From Bacillota bacterium (GTDB taxonomy: Bacteria > Bacillota > DTU014), in assembly GCA_012719595.1 (NCBI GenBank), contig JAAYAB010000034.1, positions 32,902-96,901 on the forward strand: a DNA stretch of 64,000 bases. The letters are read 5' to 3'. A model generated the notes under the pieces. The model was given only the letters and a program-made list of their open reading frames with translations. It was not told the origin of the DNA and did no database searches. A program made the position numbers and the translations under genes. Positions 17,230-31,739 of this stretch are shown here, in pieces. How positions within the stretch are numbered: position 1 is the first letter of the stretch; each line of letters starts with the position of its first letter.

Positions 17230-18507
17230 TCAGTTCTGCTTCTCGAAAGCTCGGTGCCCTATGTCGGTCCGGTAGTGGGCCCGCTCAAACTGTATGGCAT
17301 GCACAGCCTCGTAAGCGCGCTCGGCCGCCTCCCGCAAGGTCGTCCCCAACGCGGTAACGGCCAACACCCGGCCACCCGCGGTCACAACACGTTCATCACG
17401 GGCTGCAGTGCCGGCATGGAACACAATGACGTCGTCGAGCTCTTTGACTCGCTCCAAGCCAGAGATCTCACGGCCTGTCTGGTACGCTCCAGGGTACCCT
17501 CCTGACGCCATCACGACGCACAACGCGCTCTCGTCGCGCCACTCGAGAGTGACCCGATCGAGCTCGCCGTCAATGCACGCCTCCATCACATCCACAAGGT
17601 CTGTTCGAAGCCTCGGAAGGACAACTTGCGCCTCAGGATCGCCGAACCTGGAGTTGAACTCTATCACCTTCGGGCCGTCCGGCCCGATCATCAAGCCGGC
17701 ATACAGAACCCCTACGAATGGAGTGCCCAGCTCGGCCAATGCCTCGACAGCCGGAACCAGAATGTCTTCATACACGCGGCGCTGCATGTCTTCATCGACG
17801 ATCGGCACGGGCGAATACGCGCCCATGCCTCCGGTATTCGGTCCGGTGTCTCCATCATACGCAGCCTTGTGGTCCTGTGAAGGCACCATTGGCACCACCC
17901 GCTTGCCGTCACAGAACGCCAACACAGTCGCTTCCTCTCCTGTCAGGTACTCCTCCACAATCACCCGGCTTCCCGCGTCTCCAAACGCGCGGGCCCCCAT
18001 GACGAGATCGACTGCCTGCTCGGCCTCTTTGAGCGACCCGGCTACCGTGACACCTTTGCCTGCGGTGAGTCCAATGGGCTTTATCACCATCGGGGGGCTG
18101 AGTGATCTCAGGTATGCCTTGGCGTCCTCAGGATTGTCAAACTCCCTGTAGGAACCTGTGGGAATGCCCTTGGCCTCCATCAGCCTCTTTGCGAATGCCT
18201 TGTCCGTCTCTATCCTCGCACTGGCTTGCGTGGGTCCGAACGCCCTGATGCCTCTCTCCATGAGTTCGTCTACGACTCCAGCCTCGAGATAGGCCTCAGG
18301 ACCGATGACCACCAGATCGACCTGTCTAGACTCGGCGAGCTCGGCGATCGCAGCCGGACTCCCACCCGCCGCCTGGACACATTCAGCCAGCTCAGCTATA
18401 CCAGGATTCCCAGGTGTACAGAGCACCTGGTCAACCCTGGGGCTGCGGCTGATCGACCATACGATGGCATGCTCCCTTCCGCCTCCGCCGACGACAAGAA
18501 CCTTCAC
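17230..18507 (-). CDS. purD: Phosphoribosylamine--glycine ligase
   Basis: MKVLVVGGGGREHAI and ATP-grasp motifs. Confidence 0.9.
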   Translation of the reverse strand: MKVLVVGGGGREHAIVWSISRSPRVDQVLCTPGNPGIAELAECVQAAGGSPAAIAELAESRQVDLVVIGPEAYLEAGVVDELMERGIRAFGPTQASARIETDKAFAKRLMEAKGIPTGSYREFDNPEDAKAYLRSLSPPMVIKPIGLTAGKGVTVAGSLKEAEQAVDLVMGARAFGDAGSRVIVEEYLTGEEATVLAFCDGKRVVPMVPSQDHKAAYDGDTGPNTGGMGAYSPVPIVDEDMQRRVYEDILVPAVEALAELGTPFVGVLYAGLMIGPDGPKVIEFNSRFGDPEAQVVLPRLRTDLVDVMEACIDGELDRVTLEWRDESALCVVMASGGYPGAYQTGREISGLERVKELDDVIVFHAGTAARDERVVTAGGRVLAVTALGTTLREAAERAYEAVHAIQFERAHYRTDIGHRAFEKQN

Positions 18508-18525
18508 AGAACGTCAACTCCCATC

Positions 18526-19425
18526 TCAACAGAGTTCCCTGCCAACGATCCGCCTGTAGGCCTCCAGATAACGGGTCCTGGTGCTGCTGATCACATGCTC
18601 CGGGAGCACCGGAGGAGGCGGCGTCTTGTCCCACCCAAGACTCTCAAGGTAATCCCTCAGATACTGCTTGTCGAAGCTGTCCTGGCTTCTGCCCGCCTCA
18701 TAGGTATCCGCGGCCCAGAACCTGGACGAATCAGGCGTGAGGATCTCGTCCACAACGTGCAGTATCCCGTCGATCATTGCGAACTCGAACTTGGTGTCTG
18801 CGATTATGATGCCGCGCTCCTCAGCCCTTCGGCTCGCAGCTGCGTAAAGCTGCAAGCTCTTTGCGATGATCTCATCGGTCAGGTCTTTGCCGATGAGGTC
18901 CGCCATCTGACTGACGGTGATCGGCAAGTCGTGACCCGCATCAGCTTTAGTCGTCGGAGTGAAAATGGGTTCAGGCAGGCGCGATGAGTTCAGGAGCCCT
19001 GCAGGCAGCCGGACACCGGACACTGCCCCGCTCTCCTTATACTGCGCCCATCCGCCGCCGGCCAGGTAGCCCCTGACTATGCACTCTACCGGCAGCACCT
19101 TGCCCTTCTTGACTAGCATGAAGCGGCCTTCCAGTTCATCTCTATACCTCGCGAGGTCAGTAGGAAGGTCGGAGACGTCTGCGGACAGGAAATGGTTTCG
19201 AACAATGTCTTTGGTGTAGTCAAACCAGAACGCAGAAAGCCCGGTCAGGACCTTCCCCTTGTCAGGGATCGGCTGGTTGAAGACGACGTCAAACGCCGAG
19301 ACTCTGTCGGTAGCGACAAACAACAGTTCCTCGCCGAGATCATAGATGTCGCGGACCTTCCCGCGGGACATCAATGGGACTTCCTTCACAGTGGTCTCCA
19401 TCAGACCTGAACTCATCGAACTCAC
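18526..19425 (-). CDS. purC: SAICAR synthetase (long form)
   Basis: LLFVATDRVSAFD and downstream motifs. GTG start after AGGAGG overlaps the purN stop (GTGA). Confidence 0.85.
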   Translation of the reverse strand: MSSMSSGLMETTVKEVPLMSRGKVRDIYDLGEELLFVATDRVSAFDVVFNQPIPDKGKVLTGLSAFWFDYTKDIVRNHFLSADVSDLPTDLARYRDELEGRFMLVKKGKVLPVECIVRGYLAGGGWAQYKESGAVSGVRLPAGLLNSSRLPEPIFTPTTKADAGHDLPITVSQMADLIGKDLTDEIIAKSLQLYAAASRRAEERGIIIADTKFEFAMIDGILHVVDEILTPDSSRFWAADTYEAGRSQDSFDKQYLRDYLESLGWDKTPPPPVLPEHVISSTRTRYLEAYRRIVGRELC

Positions 19426-20060
19426 TGTCCGCTCCTCCTACGCACGCGCATTCCGTCGACCGTCAGCAGTCCGGCGCAATACAGCTCGACAGCCTTCGGG
19501 TAGATTCTGTGCTCCACTTGCAGGACCTTTGCCGCCAGTGATTCGGGCGTATCGTCATCCTCGATGCGCACGATGTCCTGCAGGATGATAGGCCCCACAT
19601 CGCATTCCTCTGTGACAAAGTGCACGGTAGCCCCGGAGAACTGAGTTCCTGACGCTATCACCGCTTCATGCACGAGATGACCGTACATCCCCTTGCCGCC
19701 GAACGCGGGAAGCAGCGCCGGATGGATGTTCATCGCGTCGCCGTGGTACCGCTCGAAAAAGACGCGGTCGAGTATGCGCATGAAACCTGCCAGGCAAACC
19801 AGATCTACGCGATACTCAGTCAGCACATGGGCTATTTGCTCCGAGAACTCACGCCTGCTGCTGAAGTCCTCGTACCGCACCACCTCAGTGGCGATCCCGT
19901 GCTGGCGGGCACGCTCCAGCGCGTATGCCCGGTCATTGCTCGAAACCACTACAACGAGGCCGCCCTTGATCTGTCCTGACTCCACAGCGTCTATGATCGC
20001 CTGCAAGTTGCTTCCCGACCCCGAAACCAGAGCACCAATACGAACCGGTCCGCCAATCAC
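19422..20060 (-). CDS. purN: Phosphoribosylglycinamide formyltransferase
   Basis: IGALVSGSGSNLQAI and HGDAMNIHPALLPAF. GTG at 20060 follows GGAGGTG. The longer ORF-track N-terminus was rejected. Confidence 0.85.
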   Translation of the reverse strand: MIGGPVRIGALVSGSGSNLQAIIDAVESGQIKGGLVVVVSSNDRAYALERARQHGIATEVVRYEDFSSRREFSEQIAHVLTEYRVDLVCLAGFMRILDRVFFERYHGDAMNIHPALLPAFGGKGMYGHLVHEAVIASGTQFSGATVHFVTEECDVGPIILQDIVRIEDDDTPESLAAKVLQVEHRIYPKAVELYCAGLLTVDGMRVRRRSGQ

Positions 20061-20086
20061 TCGAGCACCTCCATCTCCTAACACAG

Positions 20087-21502
20087 TCACACGCCACTGG
20101 CATCCGTTGCAGGGTAATCGCCGGTGAAGCAAGCCACGCAGATCTCGTCAGCCGGCCTGCCTATCGCCGCGTACAGGCCGTCGAGCGACAGGTAGTGAAG
20201 CGAGTCAGCGTTGATGAATCTGCGGATCTCCTCTATGGAGTGAGAGGAGGCAACGAGCTCCTTCGCGGCCGGCACATCGATGCCGTAGTAGCATGCATAC
20301 CTCCACGGCGGAGAACTGATCAGCATGTGCACCTCTGAAGCGCCCGCCTCTCTCAACAAGCTTACGAGCACGCTGCTGGTAGTGCCCCGCACTATCGAGT
20401 CGTCGATTATGGCTATCCGCTTGCCTCTGATCACTGCGTCTATGGGCGTCAGCTTGAGGGTGACTCCCCTGTTGCGCAGCTCCTGCTTTGGCTGGATGAA
20501 AGTCCTTCCGACGTACCTGTTCACGTTCAACCCGATGTCAATGGGGATTCCGGATGCCTCGGCAAAGCCGAGCGCTGTGGACCATCCTGAGTCCGGAACG
20601 GGTATTACCAGGTCTGCCTCGATCTTGCTCTCCCTTGCGAGCTGTCTTCCCATCTCTTTTCGGACGAGATGCATGACCTTGCCGTCGATCTGAGAGTCAG
20701 GCCTGGCGAAGTAGATGTACTCCATGGCGCACACTGCCCGCTTCTTCGACTCCAGAAGCTTGACAGAGTGCAGTCCGTCCGCATCTATGGTCACCAGCTC
20801 ACCTGGTTCTATGTCTCTCAGGAACTTCGCCCCTACCGTACTCAAGGCGCAGCTCTCGGAGGCTATCATATACGCGCCGGCCATTCGTCCAAGGCACAGA
20901 GGCCTGTTGCCCATCGGGTCTCTTATGGCTGAGACAGAGTTGGGAGTCAGCAGTACAAGAGAGTAGCTGCCGGTCATCTTTAGGCACGCCTCACGCAGCG
21001 CCTCGGCGATACTGGGCCTGCCTGCACGGGCAAGGAGGTTGACGATGATCTCTGTGTCCGAGGTCGATTGGAACACAGCCCCGGCTGAGGTCAACTCGCT
21101 GATCAGCTCAGCCGCGTTTGCGATGTTGCCGTTGTGGGCGAGAGCAATCGGGCCAAGGGAGCACCTTGCGTGGATAGGCTGGGCGTTGACGAGCAGACTC
21201 TCTCCCGCTGTCGAGTACCTGACGTGGCCGATCGCCAGATGTCCATTCAGGCTCCGGATGTCCTCTTCTGTGAATACTTGCCTCACGAGGCCCATTCCCT
21301 TGTGCACGGAAATCGTCTCTCCATCCGATACAACGATCCCTGCACTCTCCTGGCCCCTGTGCTGAAGGCTGAACAGCGCGTTGTGCGTGACCGCCGCAGC
21401 ATCGAAGGATTCAGACTCACCATACACCGCAAACACGCCGCACTCTTCACGCGGCACATCGATCATGTCCATATCATCGGCTACTAGCCTGTGAGTTGTC
21501 AT
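20087..21502 (-). CDS. purF: Amidophosphoribosyltransferase
   Basis: N-terminal CGVFAVYG Ntn motif and a PRTase domain. Confidence 0.9.
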   Translation of the reverse strand: MTTHRLVADDMDMIDVPREECGVFAVYGESESFDAAAVTHNALFSLQHRGQESAGIVVSDGETISVHKGMGLVRQVFTEEDIRSLNGHLAIGHVRYSTAGESLLVNAQPIHARCSLGPIALAHNGNIANAAELISELTSAGAVFQSTSDTEIIVNLLARAGRPSIAEALREACLKMTGSYSLVLLTPNSVSAIRDPMGNRPLCLGRMAGAYMIASESCALSTVGAKFLRDIEPGELVTIDADGLHSVKLLESKKRAVCAMEYIYFARPDSQIDGKVMHLVRKEMGRQLARESKIEADLVIPVPDSGWSTALGFAEASGIPIDIGLNVNRYVGRTFIQPKQELRNRGVTLKLTPIDAVIRGKRIAIIDDSIVRGTTSSVLVSLLREAGASEVHMLISSPPWRYACYYGIDVPAAKELVASSHSIEEIRRFINADSLHYLSLDGLYAAIGRPADEICVACFTGDYPATDASGV

Positions 21503-22950
21503 GGCGTGACATCTTCCCTTTCCTGTCGCGAAGTCGCCGAACGGTCGGCGGCGAGCCTTTTCTCATCTATCACTCTCTGCCAGCGCCTGCAGATCTCTTC
21601 GGTCCTCTCCACAGAGCGGCCGATGTATGTTTCAGGGGAGTCGAGGATCCGTCTCTGGGCCGAAGTCAAGCGGCGAAGGAATTCAGAGTACTCCGGCTTC
21701 CGGTCTATCAGCTGCCTAATCGAAACCCGCTGCGACCTCGCCTCCATCGCAAGAAGCCTGACAGCCTCGTGTGCATCTGGATGCCCCGATGCGGCGAGGA
21801 GAATGTACAGCGGTTCGGCTATCACATCGTTCTTGGTTGCATCGACATTCGCAGCCATGCGCTCGTAGTCGATGACGATTCTGCTCATGACTGTGTTGAG
21901 CCTGCGAAGGGCCAAAACAAGACCTGCCAGCACTTCTGGCACGAATCTGCCTGATGCAGAGTTGGTCAGGTCACGCTGGTGCTCGGAAATCTGATCCATG
22001 TAGACGGTCATCATGCGCGGCATGAAGACCTTCCACAGGCTCTTGACGTGTTCGAAATTCCACGGGTTTCTCTTGTGCGGCATCGTCGATGATCCTACCT
22101 GCGTCTGCTCGAATCGCTCGGCGACTTCGGAGATCTCGGATCGCTGGAGATGCCTGATATCGTCTGCGAGGTTCGCCAGCACTCCGAGGGCGGACACTGC
22201 TGCGTGCAGGAAGTCTGCCACGTACTCGGGCATCACGATCTGCGTCGAGTACTCTGAAGGCAGCATGCCCAGCTCTGCCAGTACCTCGCGCTCGAACGCG
22301 TCCGCATCGTCGAACAGTATCGTGCCGGCGTTATACGCACCTACTGCCCCGGCGATCTTACCCCTGAGGTTGCCTGCAGTCTGTTCGATGGCTGCCAGGC
22401 GGTTTCCAAGCCTTGCGACGTATTCCGCCATCGCGAAACCGAACGTGATCGGCACGGCATGCTGGCCGTGAGTTCGCCCCATCTGCACGGTTGCCTTCTC
22501 TCTAAGTGCGAGGTCTATGAGAGTCTGGAGCAGGGCGAATCCCTCTGGAAGCAGCACATTCTTTGAGAAGTCCCGGTAGCGAAGCGCGGTGGCCGTGTCC
22601 ATTATGTCTACAGACGTCGCTGTGAAATGCACGTAAGGGCGTGCCGCCTGGCTGACCCTCCGCTGAATGCAGTTGACCAGGGCTCTTATGTTGTGCCTGG
22701 TCTTCTGCTCCTCGGCGTACACCTCCTCGGGACTGATGACTCGACAGGCCGTCTCTACTTCGTCTGCGACCTCCGGCGGGCAAATACCCCTTCTGCTGAG
22801 TGCGCGAGTGAGTGCGCTCTCCACCTTCAGTTCATACCTGATGAATGCAGCCTCCGACAGGTAATCGGACAGCTCTGCGTGAAGCTTCGGGTCGCTGACG
22901 AGGTATCTGTGATCCAGTGGACTGATATTGGAGAAGACATCAGACTCCAT
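21499..22950 (-). CDS. purB: Adenylosuccinate lyase
   Basis: NISPLDHRYL N-terminus and fumarate-lyase signature region. SD GGAGG. Confidence 0.9.
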   Translation of the reverse strand: MESDVFSNISPLDHRYLVSDPKLHAELSDYLSEAAFIRYELKVESALTRALSRRGICPPEVADEVETACRVISPEEVYAEEQKTRHNIRALVNCIQRRVSQAARPYVHFTATSVDIMDTATALRYRDFSKNVLLPEGFALLQTLIDLALREKATVQMGRTHGQHAVPITFGFAMAEYVARLGNRLAAIEQTAGNLRGKIAGAVGAYNAGTILFDDADAFEREVLAELGMLPSEYSTQIVMPEYVADFLHAAVSALGVLANLADDIRHLQRSEISEVAERFEQTQVGSSTMPHKRNPWNFEHVKSLWKVFMPRMMTVYMDQISEHQRDLTNSASGRFVPEVLAGLVLALRRLNTVMSRIVIDYERMAANVDATKNDVIAEPLYILLAASGHPDAHEAVRLLAMEARSQRVSIRQLIDRKPEYSEFLRRLTSAQRRILDSPETYIGRSVERTEEICRRWQRVIDEKRLAADRSATSRQEREDVTP

Positions 22951-22974
22951 AGCTGCATCAACCTCCGGAAAACG

Positions 22975-23020
22975 AAAGCCCGCGGCGTCAGGTCACCTGA
23001 AACCTGTCCGCCGGGGCTTT
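22975..23020 (-). terminator. Intrinsic terminator (riboswitch expression platform) 25 nt upstream of the purB start
   Basis: Minus strand reads AAGCCCCGGCGG-loop-CGCCGCGGGCUU followed by UCGUUUUCC. Its 5' arm overlaps the 3' end of the candidate aptamer. Confidence 0.6.
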
Positions 23021-23135
23021 TGTCCCTCTACGGTGTAGCCTCCCCCTTGAGAGGCTCGCATCACTCGGACCAGTCCACAGCCCTGCTCATCGCAGCGCTG
23101 ATGCGGAACCCTAGATGCGCTTTCCAGACCGGGCA
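23015..23135 (-). ncRNA. ykkC-family riboswitch aptamer candidate (subtype 2-like, inferred PRPP-type ON switch) in the purB leader
   Basis: Minus strand contains UCUAGGGUUCCGC, GGUCCGAGUG, ACCG and GGGACAAAAGCCCC in the order and spacing of the ykkC consensus (CUAGGGUUCCG, GGUCCGAGAG, ACGR, GGGAnAAAG), between a promoter and an intrinsic terminator. Confidence 0.55.
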
Positions 23136-23239
23136 CTCACTATGCCGAAACACTACGCCATAGCCGACACCCAAATCAACCGCCACTGCGGAGACGCACT
23201 CGGCACCGTGGCGGCCGCACAACGTTTCTTCCCGCTTCG

Positions 23240-23269
23240 ATTATAGCACACCGGTGCGGACAAACGCAA
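23240..23269 (-). promoter_or_regulatory. Internal sigma-A promoter driving the purB leader
   Basis: Minus strand reads TTGCGT, an 18-nt spacer, then extended -10 TGCTATAAT (perfect TATAAT). Confidence 0.5.
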
Positions 23270-23321
23270 ACGACAGCTGCAGCGCGGGGAGGCTCGGCGC
23301 TTGTCCACATGTTCGCCGGCA

Positions 23322-23840
23322 CTAGGCCCTATCAGGCAATGCCGGACCTGAGCCGGCTTCGGTGAGATTCCGGTTCTTTCTCTCCACCTCAGCAGCGAGG
23401 CTCTCTCTGTGTTCGCGAAGTCTCCGTCTCAGTTCTTGATCAGCCAGCGCAAGGATCTCGACCGCTAGAAGCGCGGCGTTCTTCGCCGCGTTCACCCCAA
23501 CCGTCGCGACCGGCACGCCGCTCGGCATCTGCACGGTCGAGTAAAGCGAATCTACTCCTTGCAGTTGCGACATCAACGGCACGCCGATGACTGGAATGGT
23601 CGTCAAGGACGCCATCACGCCGGCCAGGTGTGCGGCCCCGCCTGCACCCGCAATGATGACCTTTAGCCCTCTCTCTTCTGCAGTGCTTGCATAGGATGCA
23701 GCCCGGTGCGGTGTCCGATGAGCCGATATCACGCTCATCTCAAACGGAACGCCGAACTGCCGCAGAACGTCTGCAGCACCTTGCATCACGGGCAGGTCGG
23801 AGTCCGATCCCATGACTATGCCCACATGTGCTTTGCTCAT
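23322..23840 (-). CDS. purE: N5-carboxyaminoimidazole ribonucleotide mutase
   Basis: [14 protein letters not shown] and [14 protein letters not shown] motifs. Confidence 0.9.
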
Positions 23841-23933
23841 TGAAATCTGGCACTCCTCTCACGCCAGTACCTGTTGATACTCACGCAAATATCCGCTCAG
23901 GCTCATGTCAGCCCGGGAGATTTCCTCGATCGG

Positions 23934-24518
23934 TCAGCTCTGCCCAAGCCCCCGGCTCCCTCTCTGCGTGAGGGGGATGCCTGCCGAACACAGCGGACAG
24001 GCGTCAGGGCTGTAGGTCGGAATATCGAGAGCGGCAAGGACCTCCGTCCTGGCTTTGAAGGACACGCGGCCGCCGCTTCGATCGACAAGGAGACCGATGC
24101 CGACGAGCGCGCCCGGAGACGATTCGACCAGTTCGATCACTTCAAGGACCGATCCGCCGGTCGTGACGATGTCTTCTACCACCAGCACCCGCTCTCCTGC
24201 ACCGATCTCGAATCCCCTCCGAAGGCACAGCCGGCCGCCTTCGCGCTCGGCGAACATCGCCCTGCATCCTAGCACTCTCGCTACTTCGTATGCAATGATG
24301 ATCCCGCCGACGGCAGGGCCGAGAACGACATCGACACGGTCCTGTTCAAACCTGCGAGCGAGCTCCTTGCAGAGCAGACCCGCGAACTCGGGGCGCTCCA
24401 GCACCCTGAACTTCTCGATGTAATGCGGCGAGTGCAGGCCGGAAGTCAGACGGAAATGCCCGTCAAGGTACGCGCCGCACTCTCTCAGGATATCTAGGAC
24501 TGCCGACTGGCCTAGCAT
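23934..24518 (-). CDS. pyrE: Orotate phosphoribosyltransferase
   Basis: VLVVEDIVTTGGS PRPP-binding motif. Confidence 0.9.
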   Translation of the reverse strand: MLGQSAVLDILRECGAYLDGHFRLTSGLHSPHYIEKFRVLERPEFAGLLCKELARRFEQDRVDVVLGPAVGGIIIAYEVARVLGCRAMFAEREGGRLCLRRGFEIGAGERVLVVEDIVTTGGSVLEVIELVESSPGALVGIGLLVDRSGGRVSFKARTEVLAALDIPTYSPDACPLCSAGIPLTQRGSRGLGQS

Positions 24519-30981: not shown

Positions 30982-31632
<651 letters not shown>

Positions 31633-31692
31633 CTAGTGCCACCCGGACACCATCGACGAGGGTTGACCGGGATTCGGATCGGATTCCTTTCC

Positions 31693-31706
31693 AGCCTCTC
31701 TGGACT
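31693..31706 (-). promoter_or_regulatory. PyrR binding loop (AGUCCAGAGAGGCU), leader attenuator 1
   Basis: UUUAAGCCAGUCCAGAGAGGCUGGAAAGG matches the B. subtilis BL1 consensus. Confidence 0.75.
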
Positions 31707-31739
31707 GGCTTAAAGGTGCGCATCGATCTTTTGATGTTT

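Follow-up and report, generated by a model that had tools for sequence, protein, structure and literature searches.

The stretch of DNA considered here, in the following called the window, comprises 64,000 nucleotides from a Bacillota bacterium of the lineage DTU014 (assembly GCA_012719595.1, contig JAAYAB010000034.1, positions 32,902 to 96,901 of the forward strand), and the element in question is a regulatory RNA in the gap between the purine biosynthesis genes purE and purB. According to the coordinates of the open reading frames (ORFs) and NCBIfam assignments, the gene order on the minus strand is pyrD, pyrF, pyrE, purE, gap, purB, purF, purN, purC, purD, which bears out the two flanking genes named in a preliminary description of the locus. 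On this strand, purE (23840-23322) is the last gene of the pyr string, purB (22950-21499) begins with an ATG at 22950, and the gap between the end of purE and the beginning of purB (23321-22951) has a length of 371 nt. The genes from purB to purD (17230-22950, minus strand) overlap or are tightly packed and presumably form one operon that is controlled from this gap, and their order is repeated on independent contigs. The sequence blocks quoted in the preliminary description could all be located on the minus strand of the gap, namely TGCTATAAT at 23248-23240, UCUAGGGUUCCGC at 23115-23103, GGUCCGAGUG at 23071-23062, ACACCG at 23036-23031, and GGGACAAAAGCCCC at 23026-23013. Very probably, the gap encodes a singlet riboswitch for phosphoribosyl pyrophosphate (PRPP) of the ykkC subtype 2b that works as an ON switch at the level of transcription and controls the purB-purF-purN-purC-purD operon.

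The PRPP-type aptamer extends on the minus strand from 23125 to 22999, which corresponds to G1 to C109 in the numbering of the Thermoanaerobacter mathranii (T. mathranii) riboswitch. In a permissive scan of the gap, the Rfam model RF00442 (ykkC/guanidine-I) matched 23125-23007 with 60.6 bits (E 2.4e-10, model positions 1-107), and thus from end to end of the model, yet with a score below the cut-off of 63 bits; a scan of the whole window at the Rfam gathering thresholds returned a PyrR site only and no ykkC match. A score below the cut-off is to be expected because the aptamer is a non-guanidine variant. The preliminary description had regarded such a score as a reason to give up its assignment, and formally this is the case, but as RF00442 is now the model of the guanidine-I class, the score is evidence against guanidine-I but not against subtype 2. 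A covariance model termed R1, which was built from 60 purine-context aptamers with the window sequence left out, recognized the RNA with 89.8 bits (E ~4e-23, model positions 1-112) including the helix P0, and this was its sole match in the 64 kb. With E values of this order from both models, the match is far beyond chance. The ykkC scaffold of P1, P1a, P1b, P2 and P3 with the conserved CUAGGGUUCC, GGUCCGAG and GGGANAAAAGCCC is present. P1 is formed by CGCAUC (23114-23119) and GAUGCG (23062-23057), P2 is the hairpin AGCCUCUC-AAGG-GGGAGGCU (23037-23056, from models and folding), and the upper P3 is the hairpin GGG-ACAAAAG-CCC (23014-23026, from RF00442, R1 and folding), which represents the antiterminator element, a role that is taken from PMC5912903. 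P0 pairs GAAA (G2-A5, 23121-23124) with UUUC (U106-C109, 22999-23002), both strands being located by means of the T. mathranii row in the published PRPP alignment. Covariation was computed on 60 distinct purine-context sequences with P0 included in the structure: 94.8% of the cells are paired, 19 of the 30 pairs show double-sided changes, and none of 500 shuffles reaches this. Among these relatives, P1 is paired to 99.2% with covariation at five of its six pairs, P2 covaries at all six pairs, and P0 is paired to 95.8%, with compensatory changes present.

The ykkC RNAs are divided into subtype 1 (guanidine-I), subtypes 2a and 2b, which sense guanosine tetraphosphate (ppGpp) and PRPP, respectively (PMC5912903), as well as subtype 2c for nucleoside diphosphates and the orphan subtype 2d (PMC7266159). 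The preliminary description had used the label 2a for the PRPP sensors, which has to be corrected to 2b, as 2a are the ppGpp sensors (PMC5912903). From the crystal structure of the T. mathranii RNA it is known that position 49 is an A in guanidine-I and a pyrimidine in 2a and 2b, that C75-A76-C77-C78 line the binding pocket with C77 and C78 contacting PRPP, and that A5, G6, A101, A103, G104 and G105 are further ligand contacts, while the 5' and 3' tails pair as the extra helix P0 (PMC6031431). G96 pairs with C75 and touches the ribose of PRPP; it is absent or not a G in ppGpp aptamers, and the exchange G96A switches the specificity about 40,000-fold (PMC6031431). The window RNA was numbered via the T. 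mathranii row, and Heliobacterium modesticaldum (H. modesticaldum), the host of a validated switch, was not found in that alignment under NC_010337. By this numbering, the minus strand has A5 and G6 at 23121 and 23120, G48-U49 at 23063-23064 and thus a pyrimidine at 49 by the criterion of PMC6031431, and C75-A76-C77-C78 (CACC) at 23032-23035 in place of the guanidine-I ACGR; the ACACC is invariant among the relatives. The specificity nucleotide G96 is found at 23012, and position 96 is a G in all of the about 70 purine-context aptamers that were sampled. C98-G99-G100, the 3' strand of the lower P3, together with A101, C102, A103, G104 and G105 occupy 23003-23010, where C98 pairs with G79 (23031), a pair that in comparison to U79-A98 of T. 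mathranii represents a compensatory change in the lower P3. All published markers of the PRPP class, P0 included, are thus in the PRPP state in the window RNA.

For the distinction between the subtypes, a genome sample with one genome per species was collected by a pattern that described only the subtype-2 core (CTAGGGTTCC ... GGWCCRAGYG ... ACACC) and left the tail and the gene context free. It gave at least 120 loci, the first downstream ORFs of which were clustered and annotated. Among the matches listed, about 70 loci have purine-gene neighbours, namely purE (18), purine permeases (20), purL (7), purC (7), purB (4) and phosphoribosyltransferase (4), plus purK and purF. Another 22 loci among the matches listed precede genes for acetolactate synthase (ilvB), class IV aminotransferase (ilvE), glutamate synthase or ABC/binding proteins, and a third set lies upstream of genes for EamA or for unknown membrane proteins. 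The purine-context RNAs of the sample all have an N-G-N-N-GG after P3, a 5' GAAAG (rarely GGAAG) and a 3' AGGUUUC, whereas the RNAs in the context of branched-chain amino acid (BCAA) or glutamate genes have the tails GGGAG/GGAAG at the 5' side and GGUCCC/GGUUCC at the 3' side, together with another junction after P3. The window RNA, with GGAAAG ... CCC-CGGC-GG-ACAGGUUUC, follows the purine pattern. A second model, R2, was built from the BCAA-context set aligned to the R1 architecture, again with the window left out; an alignment of this set by MAFFT was rejected, as its 3' tails were ragged and RNAalifold missed P2, and the R1-guided alignment was used. The window RNA reaches 89.8 bits with R1 and 79.7 bits with R2, a difference of +10.1, which compares with +4.8 to +20.1 in the purine set and -13.3 to -30.8 in the BCAA set; at loci on which the models had not been trained, the difference was +5.8 to +17.8 for those with PRPP-type tails and -10.2 to -18.4 for those with ppGpp-type tails. 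These comparisons support that the window RNA groups with the purine-context and not with the ppGpp-type aptamers, and the sample, which was sorted by gene context, independently reproduces the published rule that G96 and the tail features track purine genes. The fold, U49, the ACCG, the PRPP-contacting nucleotides, P0 and the subtype models all agree with the assignment to the PRPP-type of subtype 2 rather than to guanidine-I, as it had already been made in the preliminary description.

The RNA has its own promoter, which consists of the -35 hexamer TTGCGT (23264-23269) and the extended -10 element TGCTATAAT (23240-23248), separated by 18 nt, so that the layout covers 23269-23240 on the minus strand. 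Transcription can be expected to start at about 23233-23237. Many metagenome contigs encode the purB protein within an identical gene order, and the gap sequence does not vary among those contigs; in four near-identical ones (L001-L004), a comparison of the gap revealed no informative differences. Among 80 loci with related purB genes, the closest are L125-L127, L129-L131, L147 and L173. All eight have an R1 match 33-200 nt upstream of purB. In L125, whose purB is 75% identical, the TTGCGT and the TGTGCTATAAT are identical to the window and also 18 nt apart, while the spacer in between has diverged at many positions, and in the other seven, a TTGACA-17-TGnTAnAAT precedes the aptamer by 15-118 nt. 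The promoter claimed in the preliminary description thus has a conserved footprint in the nearest relative and an equivalent in the seven others, and all eight retain the aptamer, an own promoter, and an overlapping terminator.

Between promoter and aptamer lies a leader of about 110 nt, the largest part of which (23142-23233, minus strand) contains two predicted hairpins, is not conserved, and cannot be aligned with L125. This leader has no Rfam match, and its fold is not more stable than that of shuffled sequences (z=-1.49; 12/200). Its GC-rich hairpin at 23177-23217 (minus strand), GCGGCCGCCAC ... GUGGCGGUUG followed by AUUUGGG downstream of the promoter, is missing from L125 and, within the fold of the leader, does not reach significance in comparison with shuffled sequences. 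A hidden guanine aptamer or another aptamer was sought in the 5' leader and upstream of purE and was not found, nor did Rfam match any RNA family upstream of purE. For the purine riboswitch, there was no Rfam match at E<=10 in 22850-24000, in line with the preliminary description, which had not seen such an aptamer in the leader or upstream of purE either. As no guanine aptamer (purine, RF00167) is present directly 5' of the PRPP aptamer, the arrangement is that of a singlet. Only a block directly 5' of P0, AGUGAGUGCCCGGUCU (23126-23141, minus strand), is 15/16 identical to L125 (~1814-1829). In the window this block can lengthen P0 by pairing its GGUC with GACC at 22994-22991, and the extended P0 is the minimum free energy (MFE) structure there; as the predicted pairing differs between the window and L125, the block was not accepted as a P0 extension.

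Downstream, the aptamer overlaps with an intrinsic terminator (22969-23020, minus strand; MFE -29.9 kcal/mol), which has an interrupted stem of 18 bp and a 6-nt loop. Its hairpin spans 23020-22975 with the 5' arm at 23020-23001 and the 3' arm at 22994-22975, and the U tract UUUCGUUUU follows at 22977-22969. The 5' arm is made up of the loop and the 3' strand of P3, G96, the lower P3 and the 3' strand of P0. The overlap of this arm with the aptamer, as seen in the preliminary description, thus exists, but it concerns P3 and P0 and not P1, the 3' strand of which lies at 23062-23057. Also the distance of 25 nt to the Shine-Dalgarno sequence of purB given there was too long: the GGAGG (22966-22962, minus strand, conserved in L125), which is placed 11 nt before the ATG, is separated by about 11 nt from the end of the stem and by about 3 nt from that of the U tract. 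In L125, the 5' arm of the terminator has the same sequence, and the hairpin is preserved by the changes that the 3' arm has undergone. If the transcript is cut before the 3' arm of the terminator, the MFE structure is the full aptamer including P0 (-52.4 kcal/mol), whereas in the MFE structure of the full leader the terminator, with -29.9 kcal/mol alone, replaces P3, which alone has -8.6 kcal/mol. Terminator and P3/P0 are mutually exclusive, and the same architecture is found in the relatives. The terminator in front of purB, which the preliminary description had also proposed, competes with P3 and P0 as in the H. modesticaldum switch.

From these structures, the following course of events can be proposed. 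Transcription would start at the extended -10 promoter, which precedes the aptamer by about 110 nt, and the emerging RNA (23125-22999) would fold into P1, P1a, P1b, P2 and P3 plus the subtype-2 add-on helix P0 (GAAA/UUUC). At high concentrations of PRPP, which is a precursor in purine synthesis, the ligand would be bound in the pocket of G48/U49, C75-C78, G96, A101-G105 and A5/G6 and thereby stabilize P3, the lower P3 and P0. As the strands of P3 and P0 are also the 5' arm of the terminator, the terminator would be blocked when PRPP is bound, and the polymerase would enter purB. At low PRPP, the far more stable hairpin 23020-22975 with UUUCGUUUU would displace P3 and P0, and transcription would halt about 10 nt before the ribosome-binding site of purB. 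Such a feed-forward activation by PRPP would explain the control of purB-purF-purN-purC-purD in this bacterium, while purE, which is joined to the pyr operon here, would be outside of the PRPP control.

The closest known counterpart is the singlet PRPP riboswitch of purB in H. modesticaldum, an ON switch with P3 as the antiterminator, in which PRPP raises the amount of full-length transcripts and activates a reporter in purF-deleted cells (Sherlock et al. 2018, eLife, PMC5912903). Like in the case of that switch, the window RNA has purB downstream, no guanine aptamer, the P0 fold and the diagnostic nucleotides, the host belongs to the same phylum, and the 5' arm of the terminator comes from P3 and the 3' tail, with the ligand leading to read-through, which here is a prediction (PMC5912903). 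It differs by its host, an uncultured Bacillota bacterium known from a metagenome-assembled genome (MAG) with about 59% GC, by the non-conserved leader of about 110 nt, and by C95 together with a 5-nt linker GUAGA between C78 and P3, features that are common to other purB- and purE-linked relatives. PRPP riboswitches have been reported from Firmicutes only, and about half of them are in tandem with a guanine aptamer (PMC5912903); the Bacillota host agrees with this distribution. The T. mathranii RNA of the crystal structure (Knappenberger et al. 2018, eLife, PMC6031431) is the 3' half of such a tandem guanine-PRPP switch, as opposed to the singlet of the window, but both share A5, G6, G48, a pyrimidine at 49, C75, A76, C77, C78, G96, A101, A103, G104 and G105 as well as the P0 of GAAA/UUUC. 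They differ in C49, G95 and U79-A98 of T. mathranii versus U49, C95 and G79-C98 of the window, and their P1b and P2 sequences are unrelated. The window RNA is a well-formed, ordinary member of the PRPP class and closely matches the validated H. modesticaldum purB switch.

Several observations weigh against this assignment. The RF00442 score of 60.6 bits is below the cut-off of 63, and none of the Rfam matches was to a dedicated PRPP family. R1 by itself is not subtype-specific, since ppGpp-context aptamers reach 60-95 bits with it, and it is therefore the score difference, together with a few diagnostic positions, that carries the assignment. At position 95, the window RNA has a C where most published rows have an A or G; a C95 is also found in the purE- or purB-linked relatives L027, L050, L051, L061 and L068. 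The U tract UUUCGUUUU is interrupted, and a strict consensus scan for promoters and terminators in 22800-23500, which demanded at least 4/6 matches per hexamer, a spacer of 16-18 nt and short ungapped stems, called neither of the two elements; it misses them because the -35 hexamer has only 3/6 matches to TTGACA with an 18-nt spacer and because the terminator stem is bulged. There is no clear terminator after purE, and read-through from upstream may thus add to the transcription from the promoter. The analysis establishes the fold, the diagnostic nucleotides, the covariation, the gene context, a conserved promoter and terminator, and structures that exclude each other, while the identity of the ligand and the direction of the switch would follow from the homology to the family.

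One rival reading is a ppGpp riboswitch (2a) that would activate the pur operon upon the alarmone signal of the stringent response instead of PRPP. Both classes share the fold, the pyrimidine at 49, the ACACC, a P0-type helix and the use of terminator-based ON switches, and even the ppGpp-context model R2 gives the window RNA 79.7 bits, but this is 10 bits lower than with R1, and the R1 minus R2 difference of +10.1 is at least 20 bits away from every ppGpp-type locus. The ppGpp aptamers have a junction after P3 without an equivalent of G96, which in the window is a G at 23012, and their tails are GGGAG/GGAAG and GGUCCC/GGUUCC; the GAAAG/AGGUUUC tails and the N-G-N-N-GG of the window match all purine-context aptamers sampled and none of the 22 from BCAA/glutamate contexts. 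Genes controlled by 2a RNAs are those for branched-chain amino acids, glutamate synthase and ABC transporters, and the genes downstream of the window RNA are purine genes and not ilv, leu, glt or natA. Altogether, a ppGpp sensor is very improbable at this place. Still less can be said for a guanidine-I riboswitch (subtype 1) or a decayed copy thereof, which can practically be dismissed. It is true that RF00442 is the only Rfam family matched, over its full length and with 60.6 bits, and that the P1-P1a-P1b-P2-P3 scaffold and most of the nucleotides in tertiary contacts (CUAGGGUUCC, GGUCCGAG, GGGANAAAAGCCC) are the same, but the score stays below the gathering score of 63, U49 is not an A, ACCG replaces ACGR, conserved tails that form P0 are not a feature of guanidine-I, and the purine context is not that of guanidine detoxification with its carboxylase and exporter genes. 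The subtypes 2c, which is linked to NUDIX/HAD hydrolase genes, and 2d, which is linked to EamA/TauE transporters (PMC7266159), were ruled out by the purine context and the sequence.

The fold might also be real and serve a different, related ligand, or PRPP plus a second input from the leader or the block adjacent to P0 that would replace the tandem guanine aptamer. What speaks for it is that about half of the published PRPP aptamers are in tandem with a guanine aptamer and that a leader of about 110 nt precedes the aptamer here, that the 16-nt block 5' of P0 is kept in L125 unlike the remaining leader and can pair with the start of the terminator 3' arm, and that C95 and the longer linker at 79-82 (GUAGA) set a purB-linked subgroup apart. 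The positions that contact the ligand, however, are all of the PRPP type, the leader is not conserved, has neither an Rfam match nor significant structure (z=-1.49) and varies between 15 and 118 nt in the relatives, and the conservation of the block rests on two sequences with different predicted pairings, which makes this reading about as improbable as a ppGpp sensor. For the leader or the block AGUGAGUGCCCGGUCU as a functional second element, either as a P0 extension that reaches the 3' arm of the terminator or as a site for a second signal, there is a slim chance that is only a little better, and if it were true, the RNA would be no plain singlet and would represent a novel variant of the PRPP riboswitch, either reinforced or with two inputs. 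Finally, the aptamer-like sequence might have lost its ability to switch, and the hairpin might be a constitutive terminator or attenuator or mark where the purE transcript ends. For this reading speaks that the hairpin, with -29.9 kcal/mol, is far more stable than P3 with its -8.6 kcal/mol. However, a terminator before five essential purine genes and after a conserved promoter would silence these genes, the aptamer, P0 and the overlap with the terminator are conserved in eight relatives, and the combination of a strong terminator with a weak, ligand-stabilized antiterminator is the validated design of H. modesticaldum (PMC5912903), and it is thus hardly conceivable that this element is without a switch function. 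A PRPP-sensing ON switch therefore remains by far the best description of the purB leader.

The window RNA leaves the current understanding of the PRPP riboswitch class unchallenged, and its value lies mainly in annotation. The only ykkC-I model of Rfam is tuned to guanidine-I, and because of this tuning of RF00442, PRPP riboswitches of this kind fall just under the cut-off and stay unannotated, or might even be given the wrong label of a guanidine sensor.

Some further observations concern the neighbourhood of the switch and the subtype-2 RNAs of the sample. purE, at the end of the pyr string, lies outside of the purB operon that is controlled by the riboswitch; together with the gap of 93 nt between pyrE and purE, it occupies 23322-23933. 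This separation of purE from the PRPP aptamer is unusual, as purE is the commonest gene directly behind the aptamer in the genome sample (18 of about 70). The pyrimidine operon, which runs on into pyrD-pyrF-pyrE and then purE, is preceded at 31590-31720 (minus strand) by a PyrR binding site (RF00515) that exceeds its cut-off of 54 with 56.7 bits.

In other Bacillota MAGs, purB genes with 59-64% identity are linked to aptamers (L027:1830-1960(-), L074:1993-2108(-), L059:2181-2308(+)) with the 5' tails AUUAUCG and UUUUUUAUG and the 3' tails ACAGUCUUC and AUAGGUUAC, which make a canonical GAAA/UUUC P0 impossible; L027 and L074 have the lowest R1 scores of the purine-context set (~77 bits). These three may be variants that have no P0 or an altered one. 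Subtype-2 cores also occur at EamA genes (L007, L012, L016, L023, L024, L030, L037, L044, L069, L117) and beside a 251-aa protein without a Pfam match (L077, L081, L110, L114). Most cores of these two kinds stem from Alphaproteobacteria; their 5' tail is CCAUGUG, their P3 deviates, and they reach only 40-53 bits with R1 as well as R2; those that are linked to EamA genes fit the orphan subtype 2d. In MAGs of the Negativicutes/Veillonellaceae, ppGpp-type aptamers are found upstream of a gene for a conserved protein of about 368 aa (L018, L038, L039, L097, L105), which had no Pfam match at E<=1e-5, and this uncharacterized gene is apparently under the control of a ppGpp riboswitch. Finally, two subtype-2 aptamers can lie within a few kb of each other, as in L087 (2854-2962 and 5093-5201), L071 (945-1060 and 6503-6618) and L054 (1-89 and 2217-2333), which suggests regulons that consist of several independently switched units; in L087, one aptamer of the pair precedes a purine permease gene and the other one purE.

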